54,410 bases of DNA from a virus. Lineage: Duplodnaviria > Caudoviricetes. Shown piece after piece: positions 3,522 through 54,410 of this stretch. Both the position numbers and the translations under genes were made by a program. The DNA lies in IMG/VR virus record IMGVR_UViG_3300044739_000092, positions 1-54,410 of that record. The stretch is one strand, 5' to 3'. The first letter of the stretch is position 1, and the number at the start of each line of letters is the position of its first letter. The notes under the pieces are model-generated. The model saw nothing but the letters and a program-made list of their open reading frames with translations. It was not told the origin of the DNA and ran no database searches.

Positions 3522-3522
3522 T

Positions 3523-3947: not shown

Positions 3948-4056
3948 ACAGACCGAGGGCCTGCGCCGCCCCTCCGACAGAGACCGGCGCAGGCCCCAGA
4001 CATGAGGAGCATCGCATGACCGACCAGTCCAGCACCACCGGGCCGCAGGTGCAGTC

Positions 4057-12001: not shown

Positions 12002-12585
12002 TGGCCGTCAGCAGACGACTCCGCTACGAGATCCTGCGACGCGACAACCACGTCTGTCGCTACTGCGGTGTCGCGGCGCCCGACGTCCCGCTCACCGTGG
12101 ATCACGTCGTACCCGTCGCGCTCGGCGGCACCGACGACCCCACGAACCTGGTCGCCGCCTGCCAGCCCTGTAACGCCGGCAAGAGCTCGAGCTCACCTGA
12201 TGCCCCGCTCGTCGCCGACGTGGCTGCGGATGCCCTGCGGTGGTCCCAAGCCATGTATTGGGTCGCGTTCCACTTCGAGACTGAGCTGCTGTCTCGGCAG
12301 GGGTACCGGATGCACGTCGATCACGTCTGGTCTGAGTGGACCTACGGGCCGCAGAAGCTGCCAGTCCCCAGGCCGATCGACTGGCAGGACTCAGTGGACA
12401 GGTTCGTCATCGCCGGCATGACTGAGCAGCTTCTCACCGAAGCGATCCGCAAGGCCATGGCGGCCACCAATGTCAGCCCCGACAGCACCTGGCGGTACTT
12501 CTGTGGCATCGCCTGGCGGCAGATCAAGGAGATGCAGGAAGTCGCCCGCGAGGTCGTCACCATCGAAGACGGGGCGGTGGACTGA
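12001..12585 (+). CDS. HNH endonuclease domain protein
   Basis: ILRRDNHVCRYCG, VDHVVPVALGG.DD..NLVAACQPCNAGK. Confidence 0.9.
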   Translation: MAVSRRLRYEILRRDNHVCRYCGVAAPDVPLTVDHVVPVALGGTDDPTNLVAACQPCNAGKSSSSPDAPLVADVAADALRWSQAMYWVAFHFETELLSRQGYRMHVDHVWSEWTYGPQKLPVPRPIDWQDSVDRFVIAGMTEQLLTEAIRKAMAATNVSPDSTWRYFCGIAWRQIKEMQEVAREVVTIEDGAVD

Positions 12586-15447: not shown

Positions 15448-16173
15448 ATGCTCGAACCGACCGAACCCAACCGATGCGCACGCGGACACCGCTGCGCCAA
15501 CCGCCAAACCAACAACGGACCCCAAGGCCAAGAACACGTCGGCGCCACCTGCGACCGGCCACTCTGCGACCCATGCCTCGACCACCTCTCCCGCATCCTC
15601 CGCGACCTCCCCAACCTCTACGCCCAACTCCACGCCCACCTCGGCACCCAACAACCAGGCGACGGACGCGGCGGCACCACCGGCCTCAAAGTCCCCATCA
15701 ACCTCGGCGTCGAAGCCCTCATGGCACGCATGATCATGATCGTCACCTCCTGGGAAGAAGTCGTCCGCGACCGCGCCGGCCACCTCCCCGCCTACGCCGA
15801 CCGAGTCCGATCCGGCACCCAACTCCTCACCGCCTGCGGCTACCTCGCCCAACGCACCACCGCCCTCGTGGCCCTCGACTGGTGCCTCGTCACCCGCATG
15901 ACTGGCATCGAATGGGAGTGGGTCGAGATGAACGGGCCTGGCGCCGCCCTGGAACTGTTCGCGTTGGAGTACTCGGTGCGGCGCGCGATCGGCACCGCCA
16001 AAGAGACCGAGCTCCTCGCCGAGCCGTGCTGGACATGCGGTGTCCGGGCCCTCGTGAGGGACACCGGCAGCAACACCATCCAGTGCGCCGGATGCGGTGT
16101 CACAATCAGCCTGGACGAACACGAGGCGTTCAAGTACCGGCAGGCACACATGACCGGGAGGCTCACGTCGTGA
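15448..16173 (+). CDS. Zn-finger phage protein, possible late-gene regulator
   Basis: LCDPC...CWTCG...CAGCG; at the end of the early region. Confidence 0.65.
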   Translation: MLEPTEPNRCARGHRCANRQTNNGPQGQEHVGATCDRPLCDPCLDHLSRILRDLPNLYAQLHAHLGTQQPGDGRGGTTGLKVPINLGVEALMARMIMIVTSWEEVVRDRAGHLPAYADRVRSGTQLLTACGYLAQRTTALVALDWCLVTRMTGIEWEWVEMNGPGAALELFALEYSVRRAIGTAKETELLAEPCWTCGVRALVRDTGSNTIQCAGCGVTISLDEHEAFKYRQAHMTGRLTS

Positions 16174-16454
16174 TCCTGGAACACAACGACCAGGTGTTCC
16201 TGCTGGAACGCCAGATCATGCGCATCTCCCGAGCAGCAGAAGCCGCCCACGTGACCCCCCAGACCATCCACGGATGGATCACCCGCGGCTACCTCAACGC
16301 CAGCGGCGAACGGGCCTTCGTCACAGCGCACATCGAGGACGGCCGGCGGTACGTGATCCTCGCCGACGTGCTCCGCGCCGAAGCTGTCACGTCAACCCGT
16401 GGCCGCGGTAGAACCCGGGCCCGGCCGGAGCTTCCACCGCGTGTCGCTGCTTGA
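16170..16454 (+). CDS. HTH DNA-binding protein (MerR/excisionase-like)
   Basis: ISRAAEAAHVTPQTIHGWITRGYL. Confidence 0.7.
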   Translation: MILEHNDQVFLLERQIMRISRAAEAAHVTPQTIHGWITRGYLNASGERAFVTAHIEDGRRYVILADVLRAEAVTSTRGRGRTRARPELPPRVAA

Positions 16455-16542
16455 CCGTTCAAAGTCATTGTGAGAGCCTCCCCGTGGGAGAAGTCTGCCC
16501 ATAGGCGCTGAACCGAGGCCACTGCCCGGTGTAGATGCCACC

Positions 16543-16576
16543 AAAGCCCCCGCCTCCCCCCGGCGGGGGCTTTCTC
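16543..16576 (+). terminator. Intrinsic terminator (possibly bidirectional)
   Basis: AAAGCCCCCGCC-loop-GGCGGGGGCTTT 12-bp stem. Confidence 0.75.
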
Positions 16577-16593
16577 ATGCCCAACCCCCGGAG

Positions 16594-17244
16594 GTGCGCT
16601 GTGGCTGCCTCCTGCGCCGAAACTTGCGCCTCCCCGGGCTGATGCGAACTACCAACCCGGACCCGCACCGCACCATCCGAGCGGCCCGCACGCTGGTCTC
16701 CGACTTCCTCCGAGCCACGCCGCTACTCGAGCACCACCGCGACGAGATGCTGTCCGACGCTCTCCACGCCGCCGTCGTGTACCTGCCCAGATGGCAGTCG
16801 GACCGCGGATGCACGGTGCACACGTTCCTGAGGATGAAGATGCGGTACGCCGTCATCGACGGCATCCGCGACCGGGCGCCGATCGGGCGCGGCCGGTACC
16901 AGCGCGGTGTCCGCCTCGAACACCTACCGGACTGGCAGCTGGACTCCCTGTCGCTGGAATACGTCCTCGACTGCGCGGCGTCACACGGGAAGTCCGGTGA
17001 CCGGCCGGAGGGCATGTTCCCCGACCCGCAGGCTGAGCGTGCCTACGCCGAAGTGGACGCGCGTCTGGCCGTGCGGCAGCTGCTGGCGATGCTGTCGGAC
17101 AGGCAACGTGAAGTCATCATCCGCATCGACCTCGGCGGTGAGACGGGCCGCGACGTGGCAGCCGACTGGGGTGTCTCCGAGTCGGCAGTCAGCCAAGTCC
17201 ACACGCAGGCCATGAGGCGCATGCGGAAGGAGCTGGAACGGTGA
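16594..17244 (+). CDS. Sigma-70 family sigma factor, FliA/WhiG-like (start may be 16642)
   Basis: Region 2 MRYAVIDGIRD; region 4 LSDRQREVI...VAADWGVSESAVSQVHTQAMRRMR. Confidence 0.85.
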   Translation: MRCGCLLRRNLRLPGLMRTTNPDPHRTIRAARTLVSDFLRATPLLEHHRDEMLSDALHAAVVYLPRWQSDRGCTVHTFLRMKMRYAVIDGIRDRAPIGRGRYQRGVRLEHLPDWQLDSLSLEYVLDCAASHGKSGDRPEGMFPDPQAERAYAEVDARLAVRQLLAMLSDRQREVIIRIDLGGETGRDVAADWGVSESAVSQVHTQAMRRMRKELER

Positions 17245-17834
17245 TCCCCCAAGCGGGCGACATCGGGCTCACCGTCATCACCGGGCCCCTGGGTTGGCTG
17301 ATCCGTGTCGGACAGTGGGCCAGCCTCGACGGCGCCCCGTACCAGCACGCGTTCCTCGTCACCGACGACGACGGCGGCACGATCGAAGCGATGCCCGGCC
17401 GGCGCGGTGTTCGCCCCAACCACGCCGACAACTACGACCCGGCGCGCACCGTCTACCTCCGCGTCGAGCAGAGCGACGACGACCGGCGGGAAGTCGCCCG
17501 GCAAGGCTCCGCGCTCCTCGGCCGCCGCTACTCCTACGCCCAGTACCCGGCACTCGGGCTCCTCGCCGCATCCGAATGGGCGGCGAAGCTCACCGGCCAG
17601 CCGAAGCAGGAACTGCGCCCCGGGTGGCTGCTGCGGTACATCGCCGACAGCCGCCGGGTCATCTGCTCACAGACAGTCGACGAGGCGTTCGTGCAGGCCC
17701 GGAAGGTGCGGGCCACCGTCGCCGAGCTGTTCGACGACCAGCGCGCTCCGGGTGATGTCAGCCCGGGTGACCTGTGGCTGGACGTGACCGCCCCGCACAT
17801 CCGGTTCAACCCGTACGCCGCGGAGGCGTCGTGA
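17241..17834 (+). CDS. Permuted papain-like (NlpC/P60, YiiX-like) enzyme
   Basis: GDI...HAFLV...IEA...Y...ICSQ.V...SPGDL, with His preceding Cys. Confidence 0.75.
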   Translation: MIPQAGDIGLTVITGPLGWLIRVGQWASLDGAPYQHAFLVTDDDGGTIEAMPGRRGVRPNHADNYDPARTVYLRVEQSDDDRREVARQGSALLGRRYSYAQYPALGLLAASEWAAKLTGQPKQELRPGWLLRYIADSRRVICSQTVDEAFVQARKVRATVAELFDDQRAPGDVSPGDLWLDVTAPHIRFNPYAAEAS

Positions 17835-42827: not shown

Positions 42828-43625
42828 ATGGTCTACGGGACGATGCGGAAGGTCACCTCCGAGGGAGTGACCGGAACGTTGTGTCAGCCTGTCGCCGACG
42901 TGCTGGCGCAGCTGGCCGCGAATGGTGGCCGGAACGTTGGGACGATCGGCAACGCGACGCACCTGTGGAACAACGGAGCTCCGCGGACGGCGGCGAATCG
43001 GCGCCACGGCGACCACACCCCGTGGTCAGCCGATGGGCCTGCCGGGTTCGTGATGGCTGTGGATGTGAAGTCTCTGCCGGGGGTGACGCCGGTGGATCTG
43101 TGGCACCGGTTTGTGACGCCGTGCGTGAAGGCGGGCCTGTACCCGGAGTTCAAGTACGGGATCTCGGACTATGTGCTGCGGGATTCCCGGCCGCCGTTCA
43201 ACATGCGGGACCAGAAGGGCGGCGACGGGCCGGGGTGGCTGCATCTGTCGTTCCGGCCGTCGCATGTCCGCGCGCATTCGACGCTCATCGCTGACGCGGT
43301 GGCGTGGCACAAGGCCGGGCGGCCTAGCCCGGTGACGTTCGTGAAGCGCCTGCGCACCCCCCCGAAGCCGCCCCCGAAGGAGCCCACTGTGGCGCAGCCG
43401 AAGTACGACACGTTCAAGGACTGGTATGGCGACTGGTTCGGTCCGGTTCAGTCCCTCATCCACTGGTGGACGAAGACCCGCCCGGTCGAGCAGGCAGCGA
43501 ACACCGGCCGGGATCAGAAGCTCGCCGATCTGCGTGATGACGTGGATGCCGTGTCCACGAACCTCGAATCCCTCGAAGCGCGGGTCGCCGCGCTCGAACC
43601 CCAGAATGGAGCACCCAAGTCATGA
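42828..43625 (+). CDS. Endolysin, Zn-peptidase (M15-like) with Pro linker and C-terminal domain
   Basis: GTIGN..H...GDH.P...V.AVD...WLHLSF; located just upstream of the holin. Confidence 0.7.
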   Translation: MVYGTMRKVTSEGVTGTLCQPVADVLAQLAANGGRNVGTIGNATHLWNNGAPRTAANRRHGDHTPWSADGPAGFVMAVDVKSLPGVTPVDLWHRFVTPCVKAGLYPEFKYGISDYVLRDSRPPFNMRDQKGGDGPGWLHLSFRPSHVRAHSTLIADAVAWHKAGRPSPVTFVKRLRTPPKPPPKEPTVAQPKYDTFKDWYGDWFGPVQSLIHWWTKTRPVEQAANTGRDQKLADLRDDVDAVSTNLESLEARVAALEPQNGAPKS

Positions 43626-43873
43626 GTGGACACGCGAGCCGTGCGCTTCCCACCGGCCCGGTCGAGCTGAAGGTCAAGGTCGCCGCGTGGGCGACCTACC
43701 TCGGTGGCGTCGGCCTGCTGGCGATCCTCAACGCGTTCTCGGACGCGAACCTGATCGCTGGTCTGCCGGACGCGATCGAGGTGTTCGTCGCGCCGATGCT
43801 GCCGACTGCGATCACGACCGCCGCAGCGTGGCTGGCGAAGCACACCCCGCGGCCGGACCTCGGCCAGCAGTGA
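43622..43873 (+). CDS. Holin
   Basis: VE.KV..A...two TMs...AW.AKHTPR, actinophage holin pattern. Confidence 0.8.
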   Translation: MSGHASRALPTGPVELKVKVAAWATYLGGVGLLAILNAFSDANLIAGLPDAIEVFVAPMLPTAITTAAAWLAKHTPRPDLGQQ

Positions 43874-44298
43874 CCGCCGTCGTCCGCTCGGATGTTCCGG
43901 CTGATGATCCGGTTCGGGAGCCGTGGTGTCTGCCGGCGAAGTTGGTGGACGGTCTGCTGTTCCGGGCTTGTGTGATCCGGTTCGAGGATCATGCGGATGG
44001 GCCGTATGTTCACGCCGATTCGTCGCACCGCAACTACGGTGTGGGGAAGGTTCAGGTGCTGGACTCGGGCCGCATCGAGATTTACGCGGCGGGCCCGGTG
44101 GGTGCGATCGCCTCGGTGCACCTGAACGTCGATGAGTCGTTCGCGAAGGACGGGTACTCGGTGGGCGCGTCGGGTGGCGCCGGCCTGACGGTGGCGGTGT
44201 TCGGTCACCGGTCGGGTACCTCGGTGACTGGCATGAACACTGGCTTGTATGCGCCGGGGCGGAACATCTGGTGTTCGTGGTGGGGACTGCCCGCCTGA
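43870..44298 (+). CDS. Hypothetical beta-rich protein
   Basis: GTGA-coupled to the holin; ends before the terminator. Confidence 0.6.
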   Translation: MTAVVRSDVPADDPVREPWCLPAKLVDGLLFRACVIRFEDHADGPYVHADSSHRNYGVGKVQVLDSGRIEIYAAGPVGAIASVHLNVDESFAKDGYSVGASGGAGLTVAVFGHRSGTSVTGMNTGLYAPGRNIWCSWWGLPA

Positions 44299-44312
44299 CC
44301 TGCTGTACGACT

Positions 44313-44356
44313 GCGGCCCCTCTCTTGTCCTTCGGGACGGGAGAGGGGCCGCTTTT
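44313..44356 (+). terminator. Intrinsic terminator of the late operon
   Basis: GCGGCCCCTCTCTTGTCC-TTCG-GGACGGGAGAGGGGCCGC-TTTT. Confidence 0.9.
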
Positions 44357-44364
44357 CGTCGTGC

Positions 44365-44781
44365 CTAGGGTCGCCAGGTCTCGTCGTAGTCCTCGTGGTC
44401 GGCGTACGGCAGGGCGAGGAGGCGCAGGGTCGGGCACCAGCCGCTCTCGATGAGTCCGTAGTCGCGGTCCTCGTGGCACGTCCAGCACCCCGCCTCGTCG
44501 CCGCTCAGTTCGTGCTCGTGCTCCTCCACGATCCGCCGCTTCGCCTCGACGTCCCGCAGCGCTCGGGAGCGCTGGTGGATGGTTTCGGCGTGTTCCTCGG
44601 CGGAGCTAGTTATCGCCTCAACGGTGCCGCCGTAGACCGGTGATGGGTCGCAGTAGCGACACTGCGACCCCACCCAGCCCGCCGGGGCGCAGCATCCTGG
44701 CTCGCACGCGTATGGACTCAAGGTCCAGGTCGGCGCCTCGTCCCGGTCGAGCCGCGCGGTCAGGAACTCCACCAGCGTCAT
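44365..44781 (-). CDS. DUF6221 family protein
   Basis: LVEFLTARLD.DE...LRDVEAKRRIV...TLRLLALPYADH.DY.E.WRP. Confidence 0.85.
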   Translation of the reverse strand: MTLVEFLTARLDRDEAPTWTLSPYACEPGCCAPAGWVGSQCRYCDPSPVYGGTVEAITSSAEEHAETIHQRSRALRDVEAKRRIVEEHEHELSGDEAGCWTCHEDRDYGLIESGWCPTLRLLALPYADHEDYDETWRP

Positions 44782-44783
44782 GA

Positions 44784-45098
44784 CTAGGCCACAGCAGCAG
44801 CGCGGGCGAGGCGGCTGGCGTGGTTGTAAGCGAGCCGAGCGGCGAGGTTCCGCTCCCGCTTCGGGTCAGTCGACGGCGGGATGCCGGGACGGGCGGCGTC
44901 GATGGCCGTCGCGATGCGCTCGCGCTCCTTCTCGGCTCCTCGCTGTTCGGCTGCCGCCTCACGGGCGGCCACGAATGGGGCCAGCGCGTCGAGCACGTCG
45001 AGCACGTCGTCGCCCGAGTCCGCAGCGTTCCACGCCGCCCCTTCCTCCTCGTCTGTCCACTGCCAGGTGGTTGCCTGCTCGTCCGGCGTCTCGCTCAC
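44784..45098 (-). CDS. Hypothetical protein
   Basis: Coupled to the RHH gene. Confidence 0.6.
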   Translation of the reverse strand: MSETPDEQATTWQWTDEEEGAAWNAADSGDDVLDVLDALAPFVAAREAAAEQRGAEKERERIATAIDAARPGIPPSTDPKRERNLAARLAYNHASRLARAAAVA

Positions 45099-45373
45099 GG
45101 TTCGACCTTCCTGAGTGTCACGACTGTCTCCCCGAGGGTGCCGTGGATCGGACCTTCCTCGACCACGTACAGGCCGTCGTCGCCGTGCCTGAGCTTCACG
45201 AGGTCCACCGTGTCCCCAGGTGCCAGGACCGGGGCCGCCGCATACCGTTGCAACGACTCACGCACCACACTGCTCACCGTCTCACCGTGCCTCTCCGCCT
45301 TCGCGGCAGCGGCATCCCACGTGTCATCGGGGATGCGGATGTTGTGGTTCGGCGTGTGTGAAGGGTTCGGCAC
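45095..45373 (-). CDS. Ribbon-helix-helix regulator
   Basis: HNIRIPDDTWDAAAAKA...GETVSSVVRESLQRY. Confidence 0.8.
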   Translation of the reverse strand: MPNPSHTPNHNIRIPDDTWDAAAAKAERHGETVSSVVRESLQRYAAAPVLAPGDTVDLVKLRHGDDGLYVVEEGPIHGTLGETVVTLRKVEP

Positions 45374-45418
45374 GCCGACATCCTCTCAGCCGACCGGCTT
45401 CCATGCCACGACCATACA

Positions 45419-45488
45419 GCGTGTACCTACACGATCAAGCATGGCACGCTCGAAAACCTGGCGCGTGTACCCACACGACGTGTACCGT
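45419..45488. promoter_or_regulatory. Operator repeats and promoter of the transfer operon
   Basis: GCGTGTACCTACACG (45419-45433), GCGTGTACCCACACG (45463-45477), half-site CGTGTACC (45479); TACCGT -10 seven nt before the ATG at 45496. Confidence 0.7.
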
Positions 45489-45495
45489 CACCGCC

Positions 45496-46221
45496 ATGAC
45501 ACAACAGTCATCAGGAGCCGTACCGGCGGTGCCGCCAACGCAGACCACCGTCGGCACGGCCCTGCCAACAGGCCGAGGCTGGGCCTACACCGGCGCCATC
45601 CTCGGCATCACCGTCTCCGTCACCGCCAACATCGCCCACGCCCGCATCCCCACCCACCCCCACACCGGTGCCGTCGCATTCGCCGCCCTCTGGCCCCTGT
45701 TCCTGTTCGTCACCATCGAAATCATGGCCCGCACCCCGTGGCCCCACCTCCACCGCTGGAAGTGGGTCCGCTTCGGCGGACTCACCATCGTCGGCGTCGT
45801 CGCAGCGATCGTGTCGTACCGGCACCAGGCCGGGCTCCTCGCCTTCTACGGCGAAGACAGACTCACCACGATCATCGGACCCTTGGCGGTGGACGGGCTA
45901 CTGCTGACAGCGACAGGCGCGCTGATCGCCACGTCACGGACACGACAGTCCACGCCAGCACCCGCCACGACCGCCACGGCTGTCACCCCCACGCCGGCGC
46001 CTGTCCGGGTCGCCCAGGACAAGGCCGCCACAGCCCCGCCACCTGTCACCACGCCCCGGCCGCCCCTGTCACCCCCCGACCAGTCCCGCGCCTACGTCGC
46101 GTCCCACCCCGACATGACACGCGACCAGCAGGCCGCCGCGCTCGGCATCTCCCCCCGCACACTCGCCCGCCACCTCGCACAGCCCACGAAGCTCACCGCC
46201 GTCAACGGAGGCACATCGTGA
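45496..46221 (+). CDS. DUF2637/Spd-like membrane protein with C-terminal HTH
   Basis: SV.ANIAHA, WP..L...E, VAAIVSY.H, PLAVDGL; four TMs; C-terminal QAAALGISPRTLARHL. Confidence 0.78.
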   Translation: MTQQSSGAVPAVPPTQTTVGTALPTGRGWAYTGAILGITVSVTANIAHARIPTHPHTGAVAFAALWPLFLFVTIEIMARTPWPHLHRWKWVRFGGLTIVGVVAAIVSYRHQAGLLAFYGEDRLTTIIGPLAVDGLLLTATGALIATSRTRQSTPAPATTATAVTPTPAPVRVAQDKAATAPPPVTTPRPPLSPPDQSRAYVASHPDMTRDQQAAALGISPRTLARHLAQPTKLTAVNGGTS

Positions 46222-46415
46222 CCCCGACCCGCAGAGTCCTGATCTTCACTGGGGAGTGGGCGGCGATCCTCGCCTTCTGCCTTCTCCTCCTGGCGCTCTT
46301 CCTCAAGTCGGTGCCCGCCGTCTTCTGGGCACTGGGGCTGGTCGGTGTCACCATCGTCACGTCGCTGGTCGAGGAGTTCCTCCGGGGCGACGAGGAAGAG
46401 GAGGCGGCCCGATGA
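46218..46415 (+). CDS. Small two-TM protein (Spd-like)
   Basis: Hydrophobic; coupled. Confidence 0.6.
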   Translation: MTPTRRVLIFTGEWAAILAFCLLLLALFLKSVPAVFWALGLVGVTIVTSLVEEFLRGDEEEEAAR

Positions 46416-46621
46416 TCACCGAGGCCCTCGCGATCCTGGTCCTCCTCGCTGCTGGCCTGTGGTTCGGCTACCGCGGTCGCAGCTTCTTCGCCCCGATCTG
46501 CTACATCCTGATCGGCGTCATCCTCGCGGGCGGCACGTTCACCGGGGCAGCGAGTCACGGCGGCCACATCGTCACGACCGTGGCGACCCAGCTCGCCAGC
46601 TACGTCGGGGGGAAGGCGTGA
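46412..46621 (+). CDS. Small hydrophobic protein (Spd-like)
   Basis: Two TMs; coupled. Confidence 0.65.
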   Translation: MITEALAILVLLAAGLWFGYRGRSFFAPICYILIGVILAGGTFTGAASHGGHIVTTVATQLASYVGGKA

Positions 46622-48255
46622 CCGCGCCCACCGAACCCCCCGCCCCGGCGCCCGAGGTGTCGAGGCCCCGCCCTACCGTGTCCCGGACGCCCCGCCCGTC
46701 GCGTACCAAGCGGCGGGCCATCGCCGTGCCTGTGCTCCTTGCCGGCGGTCTGCTCGCGTTGGTTGCGTCGCAGGGCGGTTGGCTGCTGCTCCTCGCGGCG
46801 GCGGGTGGTACGGCTGCGGTGGGCGGCGGCCTGTGGGTGTCGGCTCGGCGACGTGCCGGGATGCGGTCGGGTCGTGGTTCTCGTCGGCAGCAGCGGTTCC
46901 GGCGTCCTCAGCGGGCGCCGCGCCAGTTCGGCGGGTTCGCTCCCCGCCGCCCGGCCGCCGCGGGGATCCGTCACGTCGGCGGCAACGCCGGGCGCGGCAT
47001 GGGCCGGGCAGCTGGTCGCGCGGCGGGTGGTGTCGGTGCGGTCGGCCGTCGCGCTGCTGGTGCGGGCCGGGGCGCCGCGTCGCGCGTCGATGCGTCGGCT
47101 CGACGCGGCAAGCAGGCGGCCGGTTCGGTTGCGGCGTCTGGCCGGAAGAAGGCGCAGTCCGCGCTGCGGATCCCGGGCCGGTCGAGCACCGGGCGCCCCG
47201 CGAAGCCCGCGAGCTCGGCAGCTGGTCATCGGCCGTCGTTCGCCAGGGGCCGGAAGTCGGCCACGCCGCGCGCTACGGGCGCGGCGAGCAAGACCGGACG
47301 CTCGGGCCGCGGCGGCGGGTTCCGGATTCCCGGCATGTCGAGCGGCCGGACCGGTGGCCGCACTGGTGGCAGGGCAGGTGGCGGCCGGATGTTCGGCGGC
47401 AAGGCGACACCCCGCCGCGCCCCCGGCATGTCGGCCGGGCGTCTCGGCAACGCGGCGCGACGGCTCACCGGACGGACACGACCCGCCGCCGGTGCCACCC
47501 CAGGCGCCGGCACGGCACGGGCACCCGGGCAGCGCGTCCGTGGTGTTCGGGGTGTCCTCGGCCGGACACGCGGTCGGCTGACCGGACGCCCCGCGCCGAC
47601 ACGGACACGGACACGACGCAAGGTGACACCCGGCAAGACGACCCAGGCACCGACGCTGACACGGCGCGCCGCCCGCCGAGCCATGACAGCCACCCGGGCA
47701 GGTGCCCTGCGGACCGGACGCGGCACCCGATCACTCGCCCGACGCATAGCCCGCCGCCTGTGGAACGCCCCCGCCGCCGCTGTCACCGCACTCACCGGAC
47801 CCGCCTACCCCCGAACCCCGGCCGCCACCCTCGGCACCCCACCTGTCACCACCCCGGCCGCCACTGCCAGGCCGACACCGCAACTCGCCACCGCTGGAGG
47901 ACCCGCCATGTCCCACCCCGCCATCGACCCATCCGTCGAAGCCGCGAACAGCCTCGGCGGCTACGAATTCCGCCACATGAGCGACATCCGGAACTTCACC
48001 TCCGCCGCCCCCGAATCCATCGCCGCCCTCGCCGCCGCCTACGCCGCCGTCGCCAACCGGCTCGCCGACACCCCCGCCGCATCCGGTGTCGCCGAGGTGT
48101 ACTCCCAGATCGCCGGCAGCCTCTCCGCCTCCGCCGACACCGCCGGGGAAGCCTCCGGGCTCCTTGCCGCCGCGAACCAGGACGACTTCCAGCGCATCGA
48201 CAACCCCCGCCCCAACGAGGGCATGGCCGACTACGGCCCCAACGCCGCAGGCTGA
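46618..48255 (+). CDS. Arg/Gly-rich membrane protein with a TraA-like C-terminal domain
   Basis: Two N-terminal TMs, long basic low-complexity region, helical C-domain ending RIDNPRPNE..AD...N; directly upstream of traB. Confidence 0.65.
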   Translation: MTAPTEPPAPAPEVSRPRPTVSRTPRPSRTKRRAIAVPVLLAGGLLALVASQGGWLLLLAAAGGTAAVGGGLWVSARRRAGMRSGRGSRRQQRFRRPQRAPRQFGGFAPRRPAAAGIRHVGGNAGRGMGRAAGRAAGGVGAVGRRAAGAGRGAASRVDASARRGKQAAGSVAASGRKKAQSALRIPGRSSTGRPAKPASSAAGHRPSFARGRKSATPRATGAASKTGRSGRGGGFRIPGMSSGRTGGRTGGRAGGGRMFGGKATPRRAPGMSAGRLGNAARRLTGRTRPAAGATPGAGTARAPGQRVRGVRGVLGRTRGRLTGRPAPTRTRTRRKVTPGKTTQAPTLTRRAARRAMTATRAGALRTGRGTRSLARRIARRLWNAPAAAVTALTGPAYPRTPAATLGTPPVTTPAATARPTPQLATAGGPAMSHPAIDPSVEAANSLGGYEFRHMSDIRNFTSAAPESIAALAAAYAAVANRLADTPAASGVAEVYSQIAGSLSASADTAGEASGLLAAANQDDFQRIDNPRPNEGMADYGPNAAG

Positions 48256-48270
48256 GGAAGGACAACAACC

Positions 48271-50403
48271 GTGCGCGAGTCCGAACGGCAGCGGATCGTC
48301 GCCGAGGAGACCGCCGACGAATGGCCCTACGAGGCCTGGTCGAACCCCGTCAGCGCGATGCTCGGCACGTACCTCCTCGGCGTCCTGCTGCACATGGCGG
48401 ACGTGTCACCGTGGTGGCCGCTGCTGACCGGGCTCGCTGTCACCGTCACGTGGGTCGGCTGCACCGTGTCACTCGGCACCAAGGACCTTGGTGTCGGGTA
48501 CGCGGCGGCAGTGTCCCTGTCGGTGACAGGGTGGCTGACATGGGCCGCCGGACACCCGACACTCGACATCCGGAACTGGCCTGTCACCCGCGACTCGTGG
48601 TGGATCCTCGCCACCGCCACCGCCATCCTCGCCGTCGTGTGGGGTGTCCTCATCCGGCAACGCGCGAACGCTGTCGCTGACGTGGCCGACCGTCTCCGCG
48701 GTGTCACCGGACAGGGCGACAGTTGGGAAGACGCCTGCCGGCAGGCCGGGATCGCCGGCTGGGAGTACGAGTCGCAGGAGACGACACCCGGCGGCATGAA
48801 GGTGACGATGCGGATCCGCCCGGGTGGCACCACGTACCGGCAGGCCCTCGGCTCGGTGGAACGGTTGGAGTCGTGCGTCGAGGCCCCGTACCACGGCGCG
48901 GTGCGAATCGAGAAGGGCGCGAACGCCGCCCGGGCGGTCATCGTGTGGAACGAGCGGAACATGCTCGCCGAGGTCCTGCCGTACCCGGACGACATGTCGC
49001 CGACGGACATCGTGAAGCCGATGACGACCGGCATGTTCGAGGACCGCATCCCGGCGACCGTCACTTACGCGTACCGGTCGAGCCTCACCCTGGGGCAGCG
49101 GGACGGCGGCAAGAGCAACGAGAACGCGGTGAAGATCGCGAACCTCGTCCGCGCCCCCAACGTCCTCATCTGGCTGTCGTGTTTCAAGCAGGGCTCGGCC
49201 GCGAAGCCGTGGCTGGCCCCGTACGCCGCCGGGCAGGCCGCCGCGCCCGCCCTCGACTGGGTGACCGTGTGCACCCCCGCCGACATGGCTGGTGTTGAAG
49301 CGCAACTCGACGCGCTCGACCGGATCGGGAACGAACGCGCCCGACGGCGCACCAGCGACAAGATCGTGCCCACCCCGGAGCAGCCCGCGATCCGCCTCAA
49401 CATCGACGAAATCGCCGACCTGCTGGCCGACCCGCGGAACTACCGCATCGCCGCGAAACTCGTCCTCGTCCTGCGTAAGCACAGGTCAGAGGGCATCGAC
49501 CTTGATCTTGCTTCCCAGCGGGGCACCATGTCGTTCCTCGGACAGTGGGCCCGCGACATCGCCTCCCAGGTCAGCATCGTCAACGTGTTCAAGGTCGACA
49601 ACCCCGCCGAGGTGTGGAACGCCCTCGGCTTGGACCGGTCCCGGATCGGCGGCATCGACCCGTCCACATTCGAGTACCAGGGCACGATGCTCACCGTGGC
49701 GCCCGGCGCCCGGATCGCGCCGCAGAAGGTGTTCCGCATCAACCACGACGACCCCCTCGCCGTCCCCAAGCTGGCGGCTGCCGGCGCCGCGCACCGGCCC
49801 CAGCTCGAGCAGTCGGCTGTGGCGGCGGCGGGGCCGCAGTACGCGCGCCGTTGGCAGACCGACCAGGTCCGGGCCCTGCTGGTGGATGCGGCGCGGATCG
49901 TCGGCGGCCAGTATCAGCCCGCGCACGTTCCCGCCGTCGGCCACGCGACCGTCCCCGCCTCGGTCCCCGTGCAGGTGGCGGGTCCGCCGCGGTTGCGTGC
50001 CGTGCCGTACCTCGACCCCACCAGCAGCGTCCCCGTCGAACGGCAACTCGGCCTCCACAAGATCGACGGCCGGCAGATCCTCGTTGACCAGTTCGGGCCG
50101 GTGGAGGGCGAGAAGGCGTGGCAGTTCGCGCAGGGCTACAACCTGCTCGTCGAGGCCCGCCGGATCCTCGCCGCCACCCCCGACCGGGCGTTGCCGACGC
50201 GGGACCTCCTCGACCAGTTGGCGTTGCGGCCGAAGTGGGACGGGCTCACCCCGGAACGCCTCGCCGAGCTCGTCCGCCCGCACGGCGTGAGGCCTGACCA
50301 GCTGGGGGCGTCGCGGTTCCCGGGGAACCCGCGCGGCTACCGCCTCTCCAGCGTCGAGGAGGCGCTGCGGCAGCCCGCCGAGGACTCCCCGACACCGGCG
50401 TAG
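48271..50403 (+). CDS. traB: TraB-type FtsK/SpoIIIE conjugative DNA translocase
   Basis: Four N-terminal TMs, Walker A GQRDGGKS, Walker B LNIDE, R.EGI..LASQR, C-terminal wHTH-like LAELVRPHGV...NPRGY. Confidence 0.85.
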   Translation: MRESERQRIVAEETADEWPYEAWSNPVSAMLGTYLLGVLLHMADVSPWWPLLTGLAVTVTWVGCTVSLGTKDLGVGYAAAVSLSVTGWLTWAAGHPTLDIRNWPVTRDSWWILATATAILAVVWGVLIRQRANAVADVADRLRGVTGQGDSWEDACRQAGIAGWEYESQETTPGGMKVTMRIRPGGTTYRQALGSVERLESCVEAPYHGAVRIEKGANAARAVIVWNERNMLAEVLPYPDDMSPTDIVKPMTTGMFEDRIPATVTYAYRSSLTLGQRDGGKSNENAVKIANLVRAPNVLIWLSCFKQGSAAKPWLAPYAAGQAAAPALDWVTVCTPADMAGVEAQLDALDRIGNERARRRTSDKIVPTPEQPAIRLNIDEIADLLADPRNYRIAAKLVLVLRKHRSEGIDLDLASQRGTMSFLGQWARDIASQVSIVNVFKVDNPAEVWNALGLDRSRIGGIDPSTFEYQGTMLTVAPGARIAPQKVFRINHDDPLAVPKLAAAGAAHRPQLEQSAVAAAGPQYARRWQTDQVRALLVDAARIVGGQYQPAHVPAVGHATVPASVPVQVAGPPRLRAVPYLDPTSSVPVERQLGLHKIDGRQILVDQFGPVEGEKAWQFAQGYNLLVEARRILAATPDRALPTRDLLDQLALRPKWDGLTPERLAELVRPHGVRPDQLGASRFPGNPRGYRLSSVEEALRQPAEDSPTPA

Positions 50404-50490
50404 CACCCGCTATAGCGGGCCCGTAGCGCCCCACCCGGGGGCCCGCTACGGGGCGTCCCGCTACGGCCCCCGCTACTGGCCCGCTACACC
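50398..50490. repeat. clt-like locus of 8-bp CCCGCTAC repeats
   Basis: Perfect copies at 50442, 50457, 50469 and 50480; palindrome CCCGCTATAGCGGG at 50406-50419; inverted GTAGCG at 50423. Confidence 0.8.
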
Positions 50491-50546
50491 CGGCTTGGCC
50501 TGCGAGGTAGCACCCACATGACCGCATCGGAGAAGGGGGGCCAACC

Positions 50547-51149
50547 GTGGCTCGGAGACGTCGTTCCAGACGGCGCCGCAGTGACGCGAGGGTGGTGCTC
50601 GCCCTGGGCGGTCTGATGGCCGTGTACTGGGGTCTGTTGCAGGCGTACCGGTGGGTGCTCGGGCACCGGGTCACAGCGGCCGGGATTGGCGCCGGGGTGG
50701 TGGCCGTCGGCGTGTTCGCGTTGCGGGTGTGGTGGCGTCGTCGTCGCGGCCGGAGGGCGGCGGTGCGGCGTCTGGCCTCGTTGGGTGATGGGACGGGGAA
50801 GGCCGCGGAGGAGCTGGTCGCCGAGTTGCTGCGCCGGGACGGTTGCACCGGCGTGGAGGTGCGCGGCGGGGGTGGTGATCTGGGTGCGGATGTGACGGGG
50901 ATGTTGCCGGGTGGTGGCCGGGTTGTGGTGCAGGTGAAGGACTACGCGAAGCCGATCGGTAGCCCGGCGTTGCAGACGTTCAATGGGACGTGTTGGGCGG
51001 AGCATGGGGCGGATGTGGCGGTGTTCGTGACGACGTCCAGCTTCACCAGTGCCGCGGTGGCGTTCGCTGGCCGGTCGGGTATCGAGTTGGTGGATGGGGC
51101 TGGGTTGGCGGCGTGGATGGGCGGGGAGTCGATGGGCTCGGCGGCGTGA
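50547..51149 (+). CDS. Membrane-anchored Mrr-like restriction endonuclease
   Basis: Two TMs, then E..VA.LL, GGGGDLGADV, VVQVKDY, FVTTS.FT..A, LVDG. Confidence 0.85.
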   Translation: MARRRRSRRRRSDARVVLALGGLMAVYWGLLQAYRWVLGHRVTAAGIGAGVVAVGVFALRVWWRRRRGRRAAVRRLASLGDGTGKAAEELVAELLRRDGCTGVEVRGGGGDLGADVTGMLPGGGRVVVQVKDYAKPIGSPALQTFNGTCWAEHGADVAVFVTTSSFTSAAVAFAGRSGIELVDGAGLAAWMGGESMGSAA

Positions 51150-51153
51150 AGAC

Positions 51154-51203
51154 GTTAATTCCGGTTGACGGGGCGAGGCCCGATACGGTAAAGTCGAGTT
51201 GAC
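51154..51203 (+). promoter_or_regulatory. SigA/HrdB-type promoter with repeated operator-like boxes
   Basis: TTGACG(51165)-18-TAAAGT(51189); GTTAATTCCGGTTGAC and GTAAAGTCGAGTTGAC imperfect palindromes. Confidence 0.65.
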
Positions 51204-51233
51204 AGAAAGAGCCGAACGAGAGGACATCTCCCC

Positions 51234-51590
51234 ATGACCACCCGCTACGACCTCGATCCGGTCACCACCGACCCTCCGATGGCCTACACCACCACCGCTG
51301 GCGTCAAGATCGCCGACCTCGGCGAAGACGGCGCGTACCTGGCGATCGGACACCTCACCGCCGAGGGGATGGTGGCCGCCGTCATCGACATGCAGAACTA
51401 CCAGGGGACGAGACCCGACGAGGAGTTCAGCGACGCCGAGATGGCCGAGCTCGTCGTTCGCACCCGCGTCGTGTTCCACAACCCCCAGGAAACCGACGCC
51501 GAGGCCGACTACAACTGGTGGATCGAGACCGGCCCGGATGTCGAGGCCAGCCCGAACGCCCTCGACGTGACCATCTGGGACCCGTCATGA
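51234..51590 (+). CDS. Acidic hypothetical protein
   Basis: GAGGA RBS; first gene after the promoter. Confidence 0.7.
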   Translation: MTTRYDLDPVTTDPPMAYTTTAGVKIADLGEDGAYLAIGHLTAEGMVAAVIDMQNYQGTRPDEEFSDAEMAELVVRTRVVFHNPQETDAEADYNWWIETGPDVEASPNALDVTIWDPS

Positions 51591-51853
51591 CCACCGGCCG
51601 CGGCGCCCGCGTGTTCTCCGACGGCAAGGAGTGGACCCCGTGACCCCGACGACGCCGGGCGCTCCGACGACCACCGACCGGCGCGGGGAATGCCGGGAGT
51701 GCGGTCGCGTGATGACGCTCAAGGTGGACGGCACCCTCCGCCAGCACCGGAGTGACATCTGGGTCAACGGGCACCCGCTCCGCTGCTGCGCTGGTTCCGG
51801 TGCCCTCCCGGCCCCCGCCGGTGGCACGCGCGCCGCCGACCGCGACACCGCCG

Positions 51854-52054
51854 ATGGCTGATCCGCTGGCCGCGGTGAAAGCCGCCACCGACGCCCGCAC
51901 CCGAGGCATCCAACGCCTCGACACCCGCTGGCACACCGCGATCCGCGCCGCCGTCGACGGTGGACAGTCGCAGGCCGCCGTCGCCCGGGCAGCCGGCGTC
52001 ACACGAGCCCGGATCAACCAAATCATGCGCAACCGCGAGGAGGAACAGGGATGA
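51854..52054 (+). CDS. Small HTH protein
   Basis: IRAAVDGGQSQAAVARAAGVTRARINQI. Confidence 0.75.
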   Translation: MADPLAAVKAATDARTRGIQRLDTRWHTAIRAAVDGGQSQAAVARAAGVTRARINQIMRNREEEQG

Positions 52055-52344
52055 GCGCAGCGAGAACAGTCCACCGGCACAAGCTCGACCACGGCATCAA
52101 CAGGCTCCGCGTCCCCATGGGGTGGAGGTTCCTCAGCACGGCGGTGAGACCGCTCGAAGCGGAGCCGTCTGTTTGGCTGGAAGTTCCCGGAGGCTCTGGC
52201 GTCCCGATGGAGACCCTGGTCCTGGAATTCATCGGGACCGGGCACATCGTACCGGGCAACGCGGCCGAGTTCCTAGGCACCGCGATCGTCCCTATCGCAT
52301 CTCCCCTGGTGTGGCACGTGTACCGCATCGAGGAGGACCGATGA
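52051..52344 (+). CDS. Hypothetical phage protein
   Basis: GTGH.......FLGT......VWHVY pattern. Confidence 0.7.
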   Translation: MSAARTVHRHKLDHGINRLRVPMGWRFLSTAVRPLEAEPSVWLEVPGGSGVPMETLVLEFIGTGHIVPGNAAEFLGTAIVPIASPLVWHVYRIEEDR

Positions 52345-52853
52345 GCGGGCAAGCCTGGCCGACCCGCGAGGAGGTCGCGCAGGTGCTCGACTTCGACGAC
52401 TTCCCGAGCGGCGTGGCCCTGGAACTGATCGCGGCTCAGGTGGCGGCGCGGGAGAAGGCGGCAGCCGAGAAGGCATGCGAGACCGCGCGGGGCGAGGTCG
52501 AACGTCTGCGCGCCAGGCTTGCCCAGGCGACGGTGTTCACCCTGCTGCCGGACACCTCCCCGTACCCACCGCACCAGGACATCCACACCTGGGGCATCCG
52601 TGTGGAGCAGCGCGGCCCCGATTCGTGGGCCGTGGTTGAAAGGTCCTGGTGTCTCGACCGGGACGGCCACCGCGAGTACGAGTCGACGCCATCCGAGCGA
52701 ACAGACGACTTCAAGGCCAGATTCCGGTTCACCCTCGATGACGCATTCGACATCGCCGAGCGGGCACTGCCTAACATCCGGATCAACGGCGCGACAGCAG
52801 TCGAGGCAGCCGCGTGGGTTGCCGCCAGACAGGCCAGGGACCCGCGCGCATAA
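52341..52853 (+). CDS. Hypothetical phage protein
   Basis: VE.RG.D.WAV......CL..DG..EYE..PS.R.DDF.AR.RF. Confidence 0.7.
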   Translation: MSGQAWPTREEVAQVLDFDDFPSGVALELIAAQVAAREKAAAEKACETARGEVERLRARLAQATVFTLLPDTSPYPPHQDIHTWGIRVEQRGPDSWAVVERSWCLDRDGHREYESTPSERTDDFKARFRFTLDDAFDIAERALPNIRINGATAVEAAAWVAARQARDPRA

Positions 52854-52912
52854 CGCCCGCCTCAGGTGCTGCCGGTGATCGCTTACGAGAACTTGGCTTC
52901 CGGGTATCAGTG

Positions 52913-52941
52913 GAGTCACATAAGATAGGATTATGTGGACC
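52913..52941. other. lox/dif-like recombination site
   Basis: CACATAA-GATAGGA-TTATGTG inverted repeat with asymmetric 7-bp spacer, AT-rich, just upstream of the tyrosine recombinase start. Confidence 0.7.
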
Positions 52942-52953
52942 TAGGGGGACTCC

Positions 52954-53982
52954 GTGGAAGACCTGGACGCTGAACTGCTCCCCGCGGTACCCGACGCACC
53001 CCCAGGAAACATCGTCCACGCGGGGGAAATCGAGCGGGCCAACCGCTACCTCAAGCGCGCCAAGTCCGACGCCACCCACGGCGCCTACGCCCAGGACTGG
53101 GCCCGGTGGACAGAGTGGTGCGCCGAAACCGGCCGCGACCCAGGCGTCCCCGCGGACCCGTTCGCGGTCGTCGCCTACGTCACCGCTCTCGCCGACGCAG
53201 GCTCCCCGCCCTCCACGATCCTGCGCCGACTGTCCGGACTCGGATACGAACACCGTCGCCGCGGCCACGACTCCCCCGCCCGGCACCCCGCCGTGTCCGA
53301 GGTCATGTCCGGAATCCGCAACGTCGCCGCCGACGGCGGCCACCGCACCCGCCAGGCCGCCCCCCTCGACACCGCCACCGTGCGACTGCTCGTAGAGGAC
53401 ATGCCCACCGGACTGGCCGGCGCCAGAGACCGGGCCATGCTCCTCCTCGGCTACGGACTCGGACTCCGGTCACGGGAGATCGTCCGCCTCAGCGTCCGAG
53501 ACATCACCGACATCGGAGCCGGGGGCGTCGAAGTCTTCATCGCGCAGTCGAAGACCGACCAGGGAGGCGCCGGAGTCACGCTGGCCCTCCCCCGGTCACC
53601 GCGGGAATCCACCTGCCCAGCCCGCGCAGTCCTCGCGTGGATCGAGGCCGCCCAGCTCACCGACGGGCCGCTGTTCCGCAACATCGACCGACACGGCAAC
53701 CTCGTCCCGCCCGGACTGGACAGCCGCGGACGTCACCGCGGCGACCGGATGGCCCGAGAGTCGGTCGGCCGGATCATCCACCGCGCCTGCCTGAACGCCG
53801 GGATCCTGTCCGGAGGATTCTCCGCTCACTCGCTGCGGCGCGGCTTCGCGACCACGGCGTACCGCATCGGCAAGGACGAGAAGGAGATCAGCCGCACCGG
53901 CAGATGGCGCCACCTGCCCACCCAGCGCCGATACGACGCGAGCAGCCGGTGGGAGAAACCAGCTGGCGGACTGGACCTGTAG
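52954..53982 (+). CDS. Cre-like tyrosine recombinase/resolvase
   Basis: SAM-like N-domain (T..AY..DW..W..WC), RDRAMLLLG...LRSRE, SKTDQ, HSLRRG, GRW, RY. Confidence 0.92.
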   Translation: MEDLDAELLPAVPDAPPGNIVHAGEIERANRYLKRAKSDATHGAYAQDWARWTEWCAETGRDPGVPADPFAVVAYVTALADAGSPPSTILRRLSGLGYEHRRRGHDSPARHPAVSEVMSGIRNVAADGGHRTRQAAPLDTATVRLLVEDMPTGLAGARDRAMLLLGYGLGLRSREIVRLSVRDITDIGAGGVEVFIAQSKTDQGGAGVTLALPRSPRESTCPARAVLAWIEAAQLTDGPLFRNIDRHGNLVPPGLDSRGRHRGDRMARESVGRIIHRACLNAGILSGGFSAHSLRRGFATTAYRIGKDEKEISRTGRWRHLPTQRRYDASSRWEKPAGGLDL

Positions 53983-54410
53983 TGAGCGACCTGGACCCGG
54001 ACGTACCCGCGTGCTGGTCGTGGCCCATCCACCCGGAGGACCGAGCGAGCGTCGCGAAGAACGGCACCGAAGGGCTCCGGCGGTGGCACACGTGGACGTG
54101 CGGGCTGTGCGGGAAGGCGAGTCTTCCGCTACGGGGTATCCGGACCGACGAGCTGGTGCTCGACCACGATCACGACACCGGACTCGCCCGGGGCTACCTG
54201 TGCCGGTCCTGCAACCGGCGAGAGACGTACGGGCGCGGCGCATTCGACCTGTGGCGTAGCTGTCCGTCCGCGGCGCTGTTCGGGCTGATCTTCGAGTACG
54301 ACCTGCCGCAGTTACAGGCGTCCGACTACGACGTGGCGGCGACGGTCGGGTCGTGGACCCAGTTCCCGCGCCGGCCGTCCCCGTGGGAACGGTTGCGGGA
54401 GGTGGGTTAG
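53982..54410 (+). CDS. Endonuclease VII domain protein
   Basis: CGLCG...LVLDHDHDTGLARGYLCRSCN. Confidence 0.85.
   Translation: MSDLDPDVPACWSWPIHPEDRASVAKNGTEGLRRWHTWTCGLCGKASLPLRGIRTDELVLDHDHDTGLARGYLCRSCNRRETYGRGAFDLWRSCPSAALFGLIFEYDLPQLQASDYDVAATVGSWTQFPRRPSPWERLREVG

Follow-up and report, generated by a model that had tools for sequence, protein, structure and literature searches.

The window analysed here is the whole of a virus record (IMG/VR IMGVR_UViG_3300044739_000092; positions 1-54,410, ~69% G+C), which was taken as a whole genome. It holds a tailed temperate phage, and in the right-hand part of this phage, past the terminator that closes the late operon, we found a divergent regulator gene, a coupled operon of membrane-protein genes, a gene for an FtsK-superfamily DNA translocase and an array of short repeats. 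Judged by its anatomy, position and kinship, this group is a transfer module of the type borne by integrative and conjugative elements of actinomycetes (AICEs), and it is part of the phage itself. Its features are listed below (aa, amino acids; TM, transmembrane helix; GC3, G+C content at third codon positions; dsDNA, double-stranded DNA).

44313-44352, + strand: intrinsic terminator closing the late operon (18-bp stem with 13 GC pairs, then a T tail)
45095-45373, - strand: Arc-like ribbon-helix-helix regulator, divergent from the module (phrog_6506, 7.4e-13)
45374-45495: divergent control region of 122 bp with repeated GTGTACC(T/C)ACAC palindromes, read from the sequence
45496-46221, + strand: DUF2637-like membrane protein, first gene of the operon (Pfam DUF2637, 1.7e-4, 22.0 bits)
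46218-46415, + strand: 65-aa membrane protein with 1 TM (GC3 frame and hydropathy; its GTGA start overlaps the preceding stop)
46412-46621, + strand: 69-aa membrane protein with 2 TM (ATGA start/stop overlap)
46618-48255, + strand: 545-aa membrane protein with 2 TM helices, a linker rich in Arg, Ala and Gly, and a C-terminal domain of 115 aa that is conserved
48271-50403, + strand: TraB-like FtsK-superfamily dsDNA translocase of 710 aa (profile, fold and Walker motifs)
50403-50515: clt-like repeat array (the palindrome CCCGCTATAGCGGG, one inverted copy, CCCGCTAC in four direct copies, a CCTGCGA box and GTAGCACCC)

A preliminary description of this DNA had named a lysis terminator, a ribbon-helix-helix regulator, a DUF2637-like membrane protein, two small membrane proteins, an FtsK/SpoIIIE ATPase with intact Walker motifs and 8-bp repeats behind it, and all of these were recovered at the positions given above. 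For comparison we used a locus (L001) on a second viral contig, G001, together with six loci (L002-L007) that a pattern scan of one genome per species yielded from 71 candidate stretches, and one chromosomal locus (L016) from a metagenome scan with the family alignment.

The translocase gene encodes a Walker A motif, GQRDGGKS (residues 275-282), and a Walker B motif, IDEIAD (378-383), of which G280, K281, D379 and E380 are invariant in 14 sequences. The single sequence matched phrog_31069 at 3.4e-18 and had no match in a sequence search of the PDB. A profile of 86 family sequences retrieved the FtsK motors 2iuu (1.7e-21), 2iut (2.9e-21) and 4nh0 (6.9e-19), followed by EssC/EccC and the pCW3 coupling protein TcpA. 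The AF2 model (pLDDT 90.8) gave the same order in Foldseek, with the dsDNA-bound FtsK motor 6t8g_A (2.4e-14, target TM score 0.62) and 2iut, 6t8b and 2ius ranking ahead of conjugative TcpA. In the model, helices 21-42, 48-67 and 72-94 and a long helix 103-158 precede the motor (160-545), which is followed by a disordered linker and a C-terminal domain (589-700); the N-terminal membrane helices, translocase domain and C-terminal domain thus stand in the order of TraB-type proteins. The ATPase is an FtsK/SpoIIIE-superfamily translocase, not a canonical TraB. The comparison with TraB that the preliminary description had proposed therefore bore out the superfamily, by both profile and fold, and left the plasmid TraB family itself unmatched. 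Its close family is rare (14 proteins among 8000 candidates scored), whereas for the wider superfamily a threshold of E <= 0.001 gave 1385 cluster representatives, with lengths of 600-750 aa for most of the 150 that were listed; it takes in the pDSM40587 protein (1e-179 to the profile).

The C-terminal domain of the ATPase, modelled at pLDDT 78.6, gave a weak DUF3631 match (0.013). The best Foldseek rows were forkhead, MarR and Rex proteins, all at E >= 1 and below significance, and the best VIA rows were LOTUS, Cdt1, ESCRT-II and DtxR-like winged helices, with Z scores of 4.8-5.7, under the safe level. Of the winged helix-turn-helix (HTH)-like tail proposed earlier, it thus holds that winged-helix proteins head both fold searches, but not that any of them scores significantly.

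Three minus-strand genes follow the late terminator, encoding a DUF6221 protein, a protein without assignment and the Arc-like regulator. The DUF6221 gene (44365-44781) is one of two in the phage; the other lies in the early region (4205-4801). The Arc-like regulator shares 60% identity with its counterpart in L001 and is a candidate for a kil/kor-type repressor, and the GTGTACC(T/C)ACAC palindromes between it and the operon are operator-like in form and may act as such.

Past this control region, four membrane-protein genes are coupled by overlaps (GTGA at 46218, ATGA at 46412 and GTGA at 46618). The first product carries a weak Xre-like HTH match at its C terminus and shares 71% amino-acid identity with L001 (tblastn); the same slot in L003 holds a clear DUF2637 protein (1.9e-18). 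The 69-aa protein is 50% identical to that of L001 and has two-TM counterparts of 68-77 aa in L002, L003 and L006. The frame of 46618-48255 is ambiguous by composition and was fixed as a single gene by third-position substitutions relative to L001. Its 545-aa product has no family match in Pfam or PHROGs, which leaves the earlier name 'TraA-like' unsupported; its C-terminal domain is common to all of L001-L007 (35-71% identity), and the L003 counterpart, at 654 aa, has the same build. We regard the 545-aa protein as a candidate Spd-like partner of the ATPase. In Thoma 2015, spd genes code for small or integral membrane proteins and form, beside tra, an operon in which the stop codon of one gene overlaps the start of the following one; the operon found here has this arrangement. 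The 545-aa gene and the ATPase gene are separated by 15 nt holding a GGAAGGA site. A complex prediction for ATPase residues 160-710 with the C-terminal domain of the 545-aa protein scored 0.17 (mark 0.32), which is evidence neither way. Tblastn searches with the DUF2637-like protein against phages, and with the C-terminal domain of the long protein against phages and plasmids, gave no matches.

The repeat array begins at the end of the ATPase gene. The 8-mer CCCGCTAC occurs seven times in the window, four of these within 39 bp, and the motif CCGCTAY occurs 16 times where 7.2 +/- 2.75 copies are expected (0 of 100 shuffles reached 16), with 6 of the 16 copies inside 50407-50487. An array of the same plan lies directly past the ATPase stop codon in eight of the nine loci, L002 being unclear, and the array-bearing loci keep a CTGACCTGCGA-like box. 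The window therefore carries a short-repeat locus at the 3' end of a tra-like gene. In pWTY27, clt consists of the 3' end of traA plus 159 bp with 7-bp repeats and is bound by TraA (Wang 2012), and the general rule given for clt is 8-bp repeats read by TraB (Thoma 2015); in position and make-up the array found here is like these loci.

The repeats fall into two classes, GCTAC in the window, L004, L005, L006 and L007, and GTTAC/TAACAC in L001, L003 and L016. This class tracks residue 687 of the ATPase, which is P or A in the otherwise invariant GN.RGY motif (GNPRGY), and does not track relatedness; the correspondence holds across two unrelated pairs, and residues 678 and 681 are nearby. Among the 56 possible 5/3 splits of the sequences, a clean two-state column in the C-terminal domain was obtained for the relatedness split and the repeat-class split only. 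The covariation is suggestive, as indirect evidence, of specific repeat recognition by the translocase. We further noticed a box, GCACCCAAAAACAGGG, ~150-190 bp past the ATPase stop in L003-L007 and L016, after the array and before the next gene, accompanied by a further copy of CCGCTACC or CCGTTAC; the box is absent from the window and L001.

Relatives of the ATPase were found in Glycomyces, Stackebrandtia and Actinocatenispora genomes, on small AICE-like elements that bring along replication and integrase genes of their own. In L003 (Glycomyces), genes for GntR, GGDEF, DUF2637, a 68-aa TM protein, the 654-aa protein and the ATPase are followed by PycTM, DnaB_N-DUF3987, a tyrosine integrase and folB. 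The order in L002 (Actinocatenispora) is GGDEF, two genes, ATPase, SSB, Prim-Pol, DUF3631, tyrosine integrase and host genes. Both layouts correspond to the AICE plan as published (te Poele 2008; Ghinet 2011), in which a regulator and Tra/Spd genes stand with Int and Rep. The likeness of the module to AICEs (pSAM2, SLP1, pMEA300) and to L002-L007 and L016 lies in the ATPase family (37-47% identity), the conserved upstream domain, the DUF2637-type protein, the small TM proteins and the array after the ATPase gene; between L002-L007 and the window, homology is confined to the ATPase and to the long protein's C-terminal domain. That the closest ATPase relatives sit in AICE-like Rep/Int elements, with repeat arrays in the same place, agrees with the dsDNA-transfer architecture proposed in the preliminary description.

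AICEs are 10-20 kb long, have their own Rep and tyrosine Int, usually reside in tRNA genes and carry no virion genes (te Poele 2008; Ghinet 2011). The window, in contrast, has the regulator/Spd/Tra/clt part only, set in a 53-kb tailed phage that supplies integration and replication. An FtsK/SpoIIIE-type Tra protein is present, whereas no Rep gene was found among the genes of 45095-53982, the sole initiator being that of the phage (12585-13634). There is also no tyrosine integrase next to att sites or in a tRNA gene, the tyrosine recombinase of this region being unlike the integrases of L002 and L003. As side observations, a GGDEF diguanylate cyclase gene lies upstream of the transfer genes in both L002 (289-1035) and L003 (4547-5209), and the PycTM gene of L003 (12729-13190), past the ATPase, is Pycsar effector-like.

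To place the module relative to the phage we compared the left end of the window with an empty site and with the phage attachment site of L001. The features of this end are:

1-1204, + strand: host DNA flanking the prophage on the left (methyltransferase gene, 1-696; 5' part of an Exo_endo_phos gene, from 707; both by Pfam)
1205-1227: attL, with core TTCGTCGC at 1205-1212 and the attP right arm CGCTAACCCAC at 1217-1227 (three-way comparison of the window, contig C97 of G047 and L001)
1219-2676, - strand: large serine recombinase, the phage integrase (Resolvase 1.7e-18, Zn_ribbon_recom 1.9e-11, Recombinase)

The end of G047 contig C6 equals window 1-1195 at 100% identity. Contig C97 of the same bin begins at window position 1086, is identical up to 1212 and then continues into an intact ExoIII-family gene, and is thus the empty attB. 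Positions 1-1195 have no counterpart in L001, where homology begins at 1196. The attP of L001 (16650-16693) consists of arms GTGGGTTAGCG and CGCTAACCCAC, 22 nt apart, flanking the core TTCGTCGC, which is common to attB, attP and attL. With its last nine bases (54402-54410, GTGGGTTAG) the window enters the left arm of attP, which puts attR ~20 bp beyond the record. The prophage therefore spans from ~1205 to ~20 bp past the end of the record. The window opens on a start codon and closes on a stop codon, like a predicted provirus cut at gene borders, and GC3 is 0.96-0.99 in 1-1204 compared with ~0.9 in the phage. The Exo_endo_phos gene at the left end covers profile positions 1-167 of 225.

Soil metagenomes gave further junctions. 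In run X1, one contig stops at 1212 and another, of 41 kb, begins at 1183; contigs in runs X3 and X4 match the window up to 1212 and then diverge. In run X2, from an independent study, the last 291 nt of an 857-nt contig equal 1196-1486 and the first 566 nt lie outside window 1-6000, a layout such as an attP form would give. The right end of the phage is absent from G047, either because the population is free of the prophage or because the bin lacks the contig of the phage. The window thus represents a whole temperate siphophage (~53.2 kb), which a large serine recombinase has integrated into an ExoIII-family gene of a high-GC soil actinomycete. The complete tailed prophage put forward in the preliminary description stands, with its virion gene set, its integrase and defined attL, attB and attP. 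So does the placing of the module within it, between attL and the left arm of attP and at the same place in G001, although attR itself, for which a search had been proposed, lies just past the record. Regarding the integration target, we noted that copies of the ExoIII-family gene (707-1222), at 65-79% identity, are present in most genomes of the order searched; the ~63 codons at its end are replaced on integration, and the nuclease should therefore be inactivated or truncated in lysogens.

The second phage contig, G001 (42.6 kb, CheckV completeness 58%), carries on one molecule a large terminase (at 2.5-4 kb), the lysis region, the module, a tyrosine recombinase, endonuclease VII, attP and the serine integrase. 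From the lysis region, across module and attP, as far as the serine integrase and the early genes, the window and G001 are colinear. The shared structural genes are 68-82% identical in DNA and 46197-51152 is ~73% identical, whereas the block from tyrosine recombinase through endonuclease VII and attP to serine integrase (52881-54387 and 1196-2661) is 95-98% identical, a sign that this integration block was either exchanged recently or strongly conserved. The serine integrases share 97% amino-acid identity. Synonymous divergence (dS) is 0.65 for the ATPase, 0.54 for the capsid gene and 0.04-0.13 in the integration block. The five module genes are intact in both phages, and their ratios of nonsynonymous to synonymous divergence (dN/dS) are 0.34-0.68, each below 1; by this two-phage comparison the module genes are under purifying selection, the values being rough because dS is near saturation at this divergence. 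L001 differs from the window by ~540 extra bp between endonuclease VII and attP (16102-16662), a segment holding a second small Arc-like open reading frame (16551-16438) that is 42% identical to the Arc-like protein of the window over 38 aa.

Related prophages with and without the module had been proposed as a check, and one with it was found, namely G001. A serine-integrase scan of viral contigs returned the L001 contig and three loci at 35-39% without a TraB-like gene, the tyrosine-recombinase scan returned only the L001 contig, and lysin and portal scans returned nothing. These close-relative scans yielded no module-free relative, which shows little, because pattern scans reach close relatives only.

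The remaining phage genes form a siphophage backbone, nearly all on the + strand (minus-strand exceptions: 1219-2676, 2946-3437 and 44365-45373):

2946-3437, - strand: HTH_3 repressor-like gene (Pfam HTH_3, 9.7e-9)
12585-13634, + strand: phage replication initiator (phrog_3171, 9e-45)
19958-40889, + strand: virion genes (PHROGs: large terminase 7e-68, portal 7e-81, head protease 2e-69, major head 3e-52, major tail 1e-38, tape measure 6e-123, tail protein 2e-49)

PHROGs matches in 19.5-40.9 kb also include a small-terminase-like gene, and a tail-spike-like gene was matched as well. Among the early genes are YqaJ/RecT recombination genes, a RuvC-like gene, a methyltransferase, an HNH gene and a sigma-like gene. 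Five ATCGGTGA repeats, plus CGGTGATG variants, lie within the replication-initiator gene at 13004-13134, and this cluster is likely an iteron-type origin inside the initiator gene, as in lambda O. The presumptive lysis genes, 42828-43625 and 43870-44298, gave no PHROG match as endolysin or holin, though both are conserved in L001. No tRNA genes were found in the window, and no partition genes among the proteins scanned, which included part of the early genes. Megablast of 44000-54410 against known phages gave no close DNA relative, and in 19500-44000 the terminase region alone matched, at ~72%, Rhodococcus ReT1v and Streptomyces SF1/SF3. Also in the early region, a gene resembling enoyl-CoA hydratase/carnitine racemase (17241-17834; phrog_1128, 2.2e-13) adjoins a gene for a sigma-70 region 4 protein (16594-17244).

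Between the array and the end of the window lie the following genes:

50547-51149, + strand: membrane-anchored Mrr_cat nuclease (Pfam Mrr_cat 1e-24; PADLOC mREase_IV 7e-11)
51234-52853, + strand: small phage-type genes (51234-51590; 51631-51861, Cys-rich; ~51854-52054, HTH; 52051-52344, DUF7352; 52338-52853)
52954-53982, + strand: short XerC/D-like tyrosine recombinase (Phage_integrase 3.3e-13; weak XerD/XerC matches)
53982-54410, + strand: endonuclease VII gene (Pfam Endonuclease_7, 6.7e-10)

The Mrr_cat nuclease is 91% identical in amino acids between the two phages and the ATPase 61%, so the two genes are not behaving as one unit; the nuclease is probably a separately exchanged type IV restriction-like moron. 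The small genes were called from GC3 frames, a Pfam DUF7352 match (1.4e-13) and weak HTH matches, and their region differs in L001. The tyrosine recombinase is 99% identical to that of L001 and has no similarity to AICE integrases; it is a second recombinase of the phage, beside the serine integrase.

The preliminary description knew of no element combining virions with this kind of transfer, a statement that the literature corrects. pZL12/phiZL12 (Zhong et al. 2010) is likewise one actinomycete element with tailed virions and a Tra-type transfer locus; conjugal transfer of this Streptomyces plasmid-phage needs a major tra gene plus two genes adjacent to it (Wang 2012), and ParAB is mentioned for pZL12 and pSLE1. 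pZL12 thereby removes a claim of first example. It is a circular plasmid, whereas the window phage integrates by a serine recombinase at a defined attB; the latter is found in the integrated state, with host DNA at 1-1204, and not as the extrachromosomal replicon of a phage-plasmid. A tblastn search of the phage collection with the ATPase did not return pZL12, and the Tra genes of the two are accordingly not close. SpdB2 homologues occur in the temperate phages phiC31 and VWB and were suggested to help phage DNA spread (Thoma 2015); as cited there, these phages have a Spd-like gene only, whereas the window phage has regulator, Spd-like operon, translocase and array together.

With pSVH1 TraB/clt and pWTY27 TraA/clt (sources: Thoma 2015, Wang 2012 and Vogelmann 2011 as cited therein) the module shares a membrane-anchored FtsK-like translocase of ~700 aa, short direct and inverted clt repeats at or just after the tra 3' end and a coupled spd operon. 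It differs in its 25-29% identity to Streptomyces plasmid Tra proteins (25 plasmid records), its repeat motif and its DUF3631-like C-terminal domain. Genes annotated as 'FtsK-like DNA translocase' also occur in the phages Hiyaa, Galactica, Keanu and Spocter (Streptomyces) and PIS 136 (Saccharomonospora), in six records at ~25% identity, with Hiyaa gp102 matching the family profile at 4e-145. These are likewise tailed phages, sequenced from virions, with members of the same superfamily, but they are 81-95 kb long and unrelated to the window phage, and no published role for their translocases was found in the literature searched. Hiyaa (L017, 1138-6662) has a module-like layout of gp98, a membrane protein (weak DUF2637, 1.1e-3), gp101 and gp102, a 698-aa FtsK/SpoIIIE-like protein. 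No description of an integrating tailed phage with a TraB/clt module was found in the literature searched, which covered few subscription journals and no supplementary files. What is new here is that an integrating phage whose att sites are defined carries regulator, Spd-like operon, translocase and array as a full set, as well as the direct kinship to AICE-borne systems and an apparent switch of repeat specificity.

We consider it fairly probable that the element is an integrated siphophage whose TraB/clt-like module pumps phage dsDNA between hyphal compartments or mycelia. Transfer of phage DNA by the module is plausible: with a pump, membrane partners and a repeat site inside its genome, the phage may spread both as virions and as naked DNA. 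Once the regulator is relieved, the translocase would assemble in the membrane with the Spd-like partners, and its C-terminal domain would bind the repeats on phage DNA, be it replicating or in the form of the excised circle. Double-stranded phage DNA would then be pumped by the motor into a neighbouring hyphal compartment or an adjoining mycelium. In the recipient, the phage integrase and replication initiator would take the roles of AICE Int and Rep, giving a virion-free route of spread alongside infection; that the phage has its own initiator with internal iterons counts in favour of this proposal. Possible too, and put forward more tentatively, is a two-route integrating phage, spreading by virions and by TraB/clt-driven movement of its genome across hyphal walls and cross-walls, in which integrase and initiator replace AICE Int/Rep and the specificity of the pump has been switched between sister phages, in either direction between GCTAC with P687 and GTTAC with A687.

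Several observations weigh against phage DNA transfer by this module. Pfam FtsK_SpoIIIE (PF01580) did not match the single ATPase sequence even at E <= 10, and NCBIfam plasmid_TraB (NF041214), with a cut-off of 800 bits, gave no match to it at E <= 0.01, relatives from L003 (Glycomyces) and pDSM40587 scoring 24.3 and 16.7 bits; the low identity to Streptomyces plasmid Tra proteins points the same way. A winged-helix fold of the C-terminal domain is only weakly indicated by the fold searches. The DUF2637 score of the first membrane protein falls under the Pfam cut-off (22.0 versus 22.8 bits), and its partners are without any family match. The covariation of residue and repeat class is based on eight sequences and one clean column. 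G001 has no counterpart of the portal and tape measure genes and its large terminase is 35% identical, so the two phages are mosaic; a right-arm block that was exchanged, rather than long co-descent, could then account for the module in both. A mycelial life style of the host is assumed. Finally, entry into a non-immune cell is expected to induce a temperate phage, so the benefit of transfer is not obvious.

Such mosaicism also speaks for reading the module as captured cargo of no further use to the phage, an AICE piece with Tra and Spd but without Rep and Int, taken up by recombination and perhaps decaying or selfishly retained. The nearest ATPase relatives are AICE-borne, and the module sits in a moron-rich region between lysis genes and attP, beside the Mrr-type nuclease gene. 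We nevertheless think this unlikely, given that five genes are intact, each with dN/dS below 1, in two phages ~27% apart in module DNA, that operon coupling is intact and that the array has been kept, its class changing together with the ATPase residue. Quite unlikely, in our view, is a role other than transfer, such as superinfection exclusion, anti-phage defence with the Mrr nuclease or host takeover. It would accord with the category of phrog_31069 ('moron, auxiliary metabolic gene and host takeover'), with the membrane Mrr_cat nuclease after the array, with HerA/FtsK-type defence ATPases among the lower fold matches and with superfamily members lacking a published role in virion-sequenced, Hiyaa-like phages. 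However, PADLOC was marginal for the ATPase (mad8, 4.8e-4) and gave nothing for its four partners, the differing conservation of Mrr and ATPase genes argues against one unit, and defence leaves the conserved 3'-end array and the AICE context of the relatives unexplained.

The module might instead serve the lysogen or move host DNA, by Hfr-like mobilisation of the flanking chromosome in cis or by mobilising other elements. The array is present in the integrated state and close to attR, and Ghinet 2011 raises the possibility that chromosomes are mobilised via clt-like regions which Tra proteins recognise. None of the present findings tells this apart from a transfer of the excised phage, but the fact that two phages have conserved the module speaks for a gain to the phage itself, and we hold this alternative to be very unlikely. 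Least credible is a nested integrative element that excises with the module by means of the tyrosine recombinase (52954-53982), which shares the strand of the ATPase gene and is found 2.5 kb downstream of it; we regard this as highly improbable. Att sites delimiting such an element had been named in advance as evidence that would count against a phage-borne module, and a search of 43800-54410 for att-like direct repeats around the module found none, only imperfect GC-rich pairs; the block also has no tRNA gene and no Rep gene, and its recombinase is unlike AICE integrases. The recombinase lies in the 95-98% identical block whereas the module is ~73% identical, and the two therefore have different histories. 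The earlier statement that neither RepSA/RepAM nor a xis/int pair sits beside the module thus holds for the Rep gene and needs amending for the recombinase, which is itself inside the phage.

If the phage does transfer its DNA through this module, it would have a receptor-independent route past receptor- and adsorption-level barriers, into new compartments or neighbouring mycelia, and the line between phages and conjugative elements in actinomycetes would be blurred. A two-route phage of this kind would amount to a phage-AICE chimera made in nature, and would link the two kinds of element directly in their evolution. Surveys of phage conjugation genes target relaxases and mating-pair systems (Pfeifer 2021) and would miss single-protein TraB-type systems, so that such hybrids may be under-counted. 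The loci compared here also constitute a natural experiment on repeat reading by a TraB-like C-terminal domain, in which one repeat base is set against one residue.

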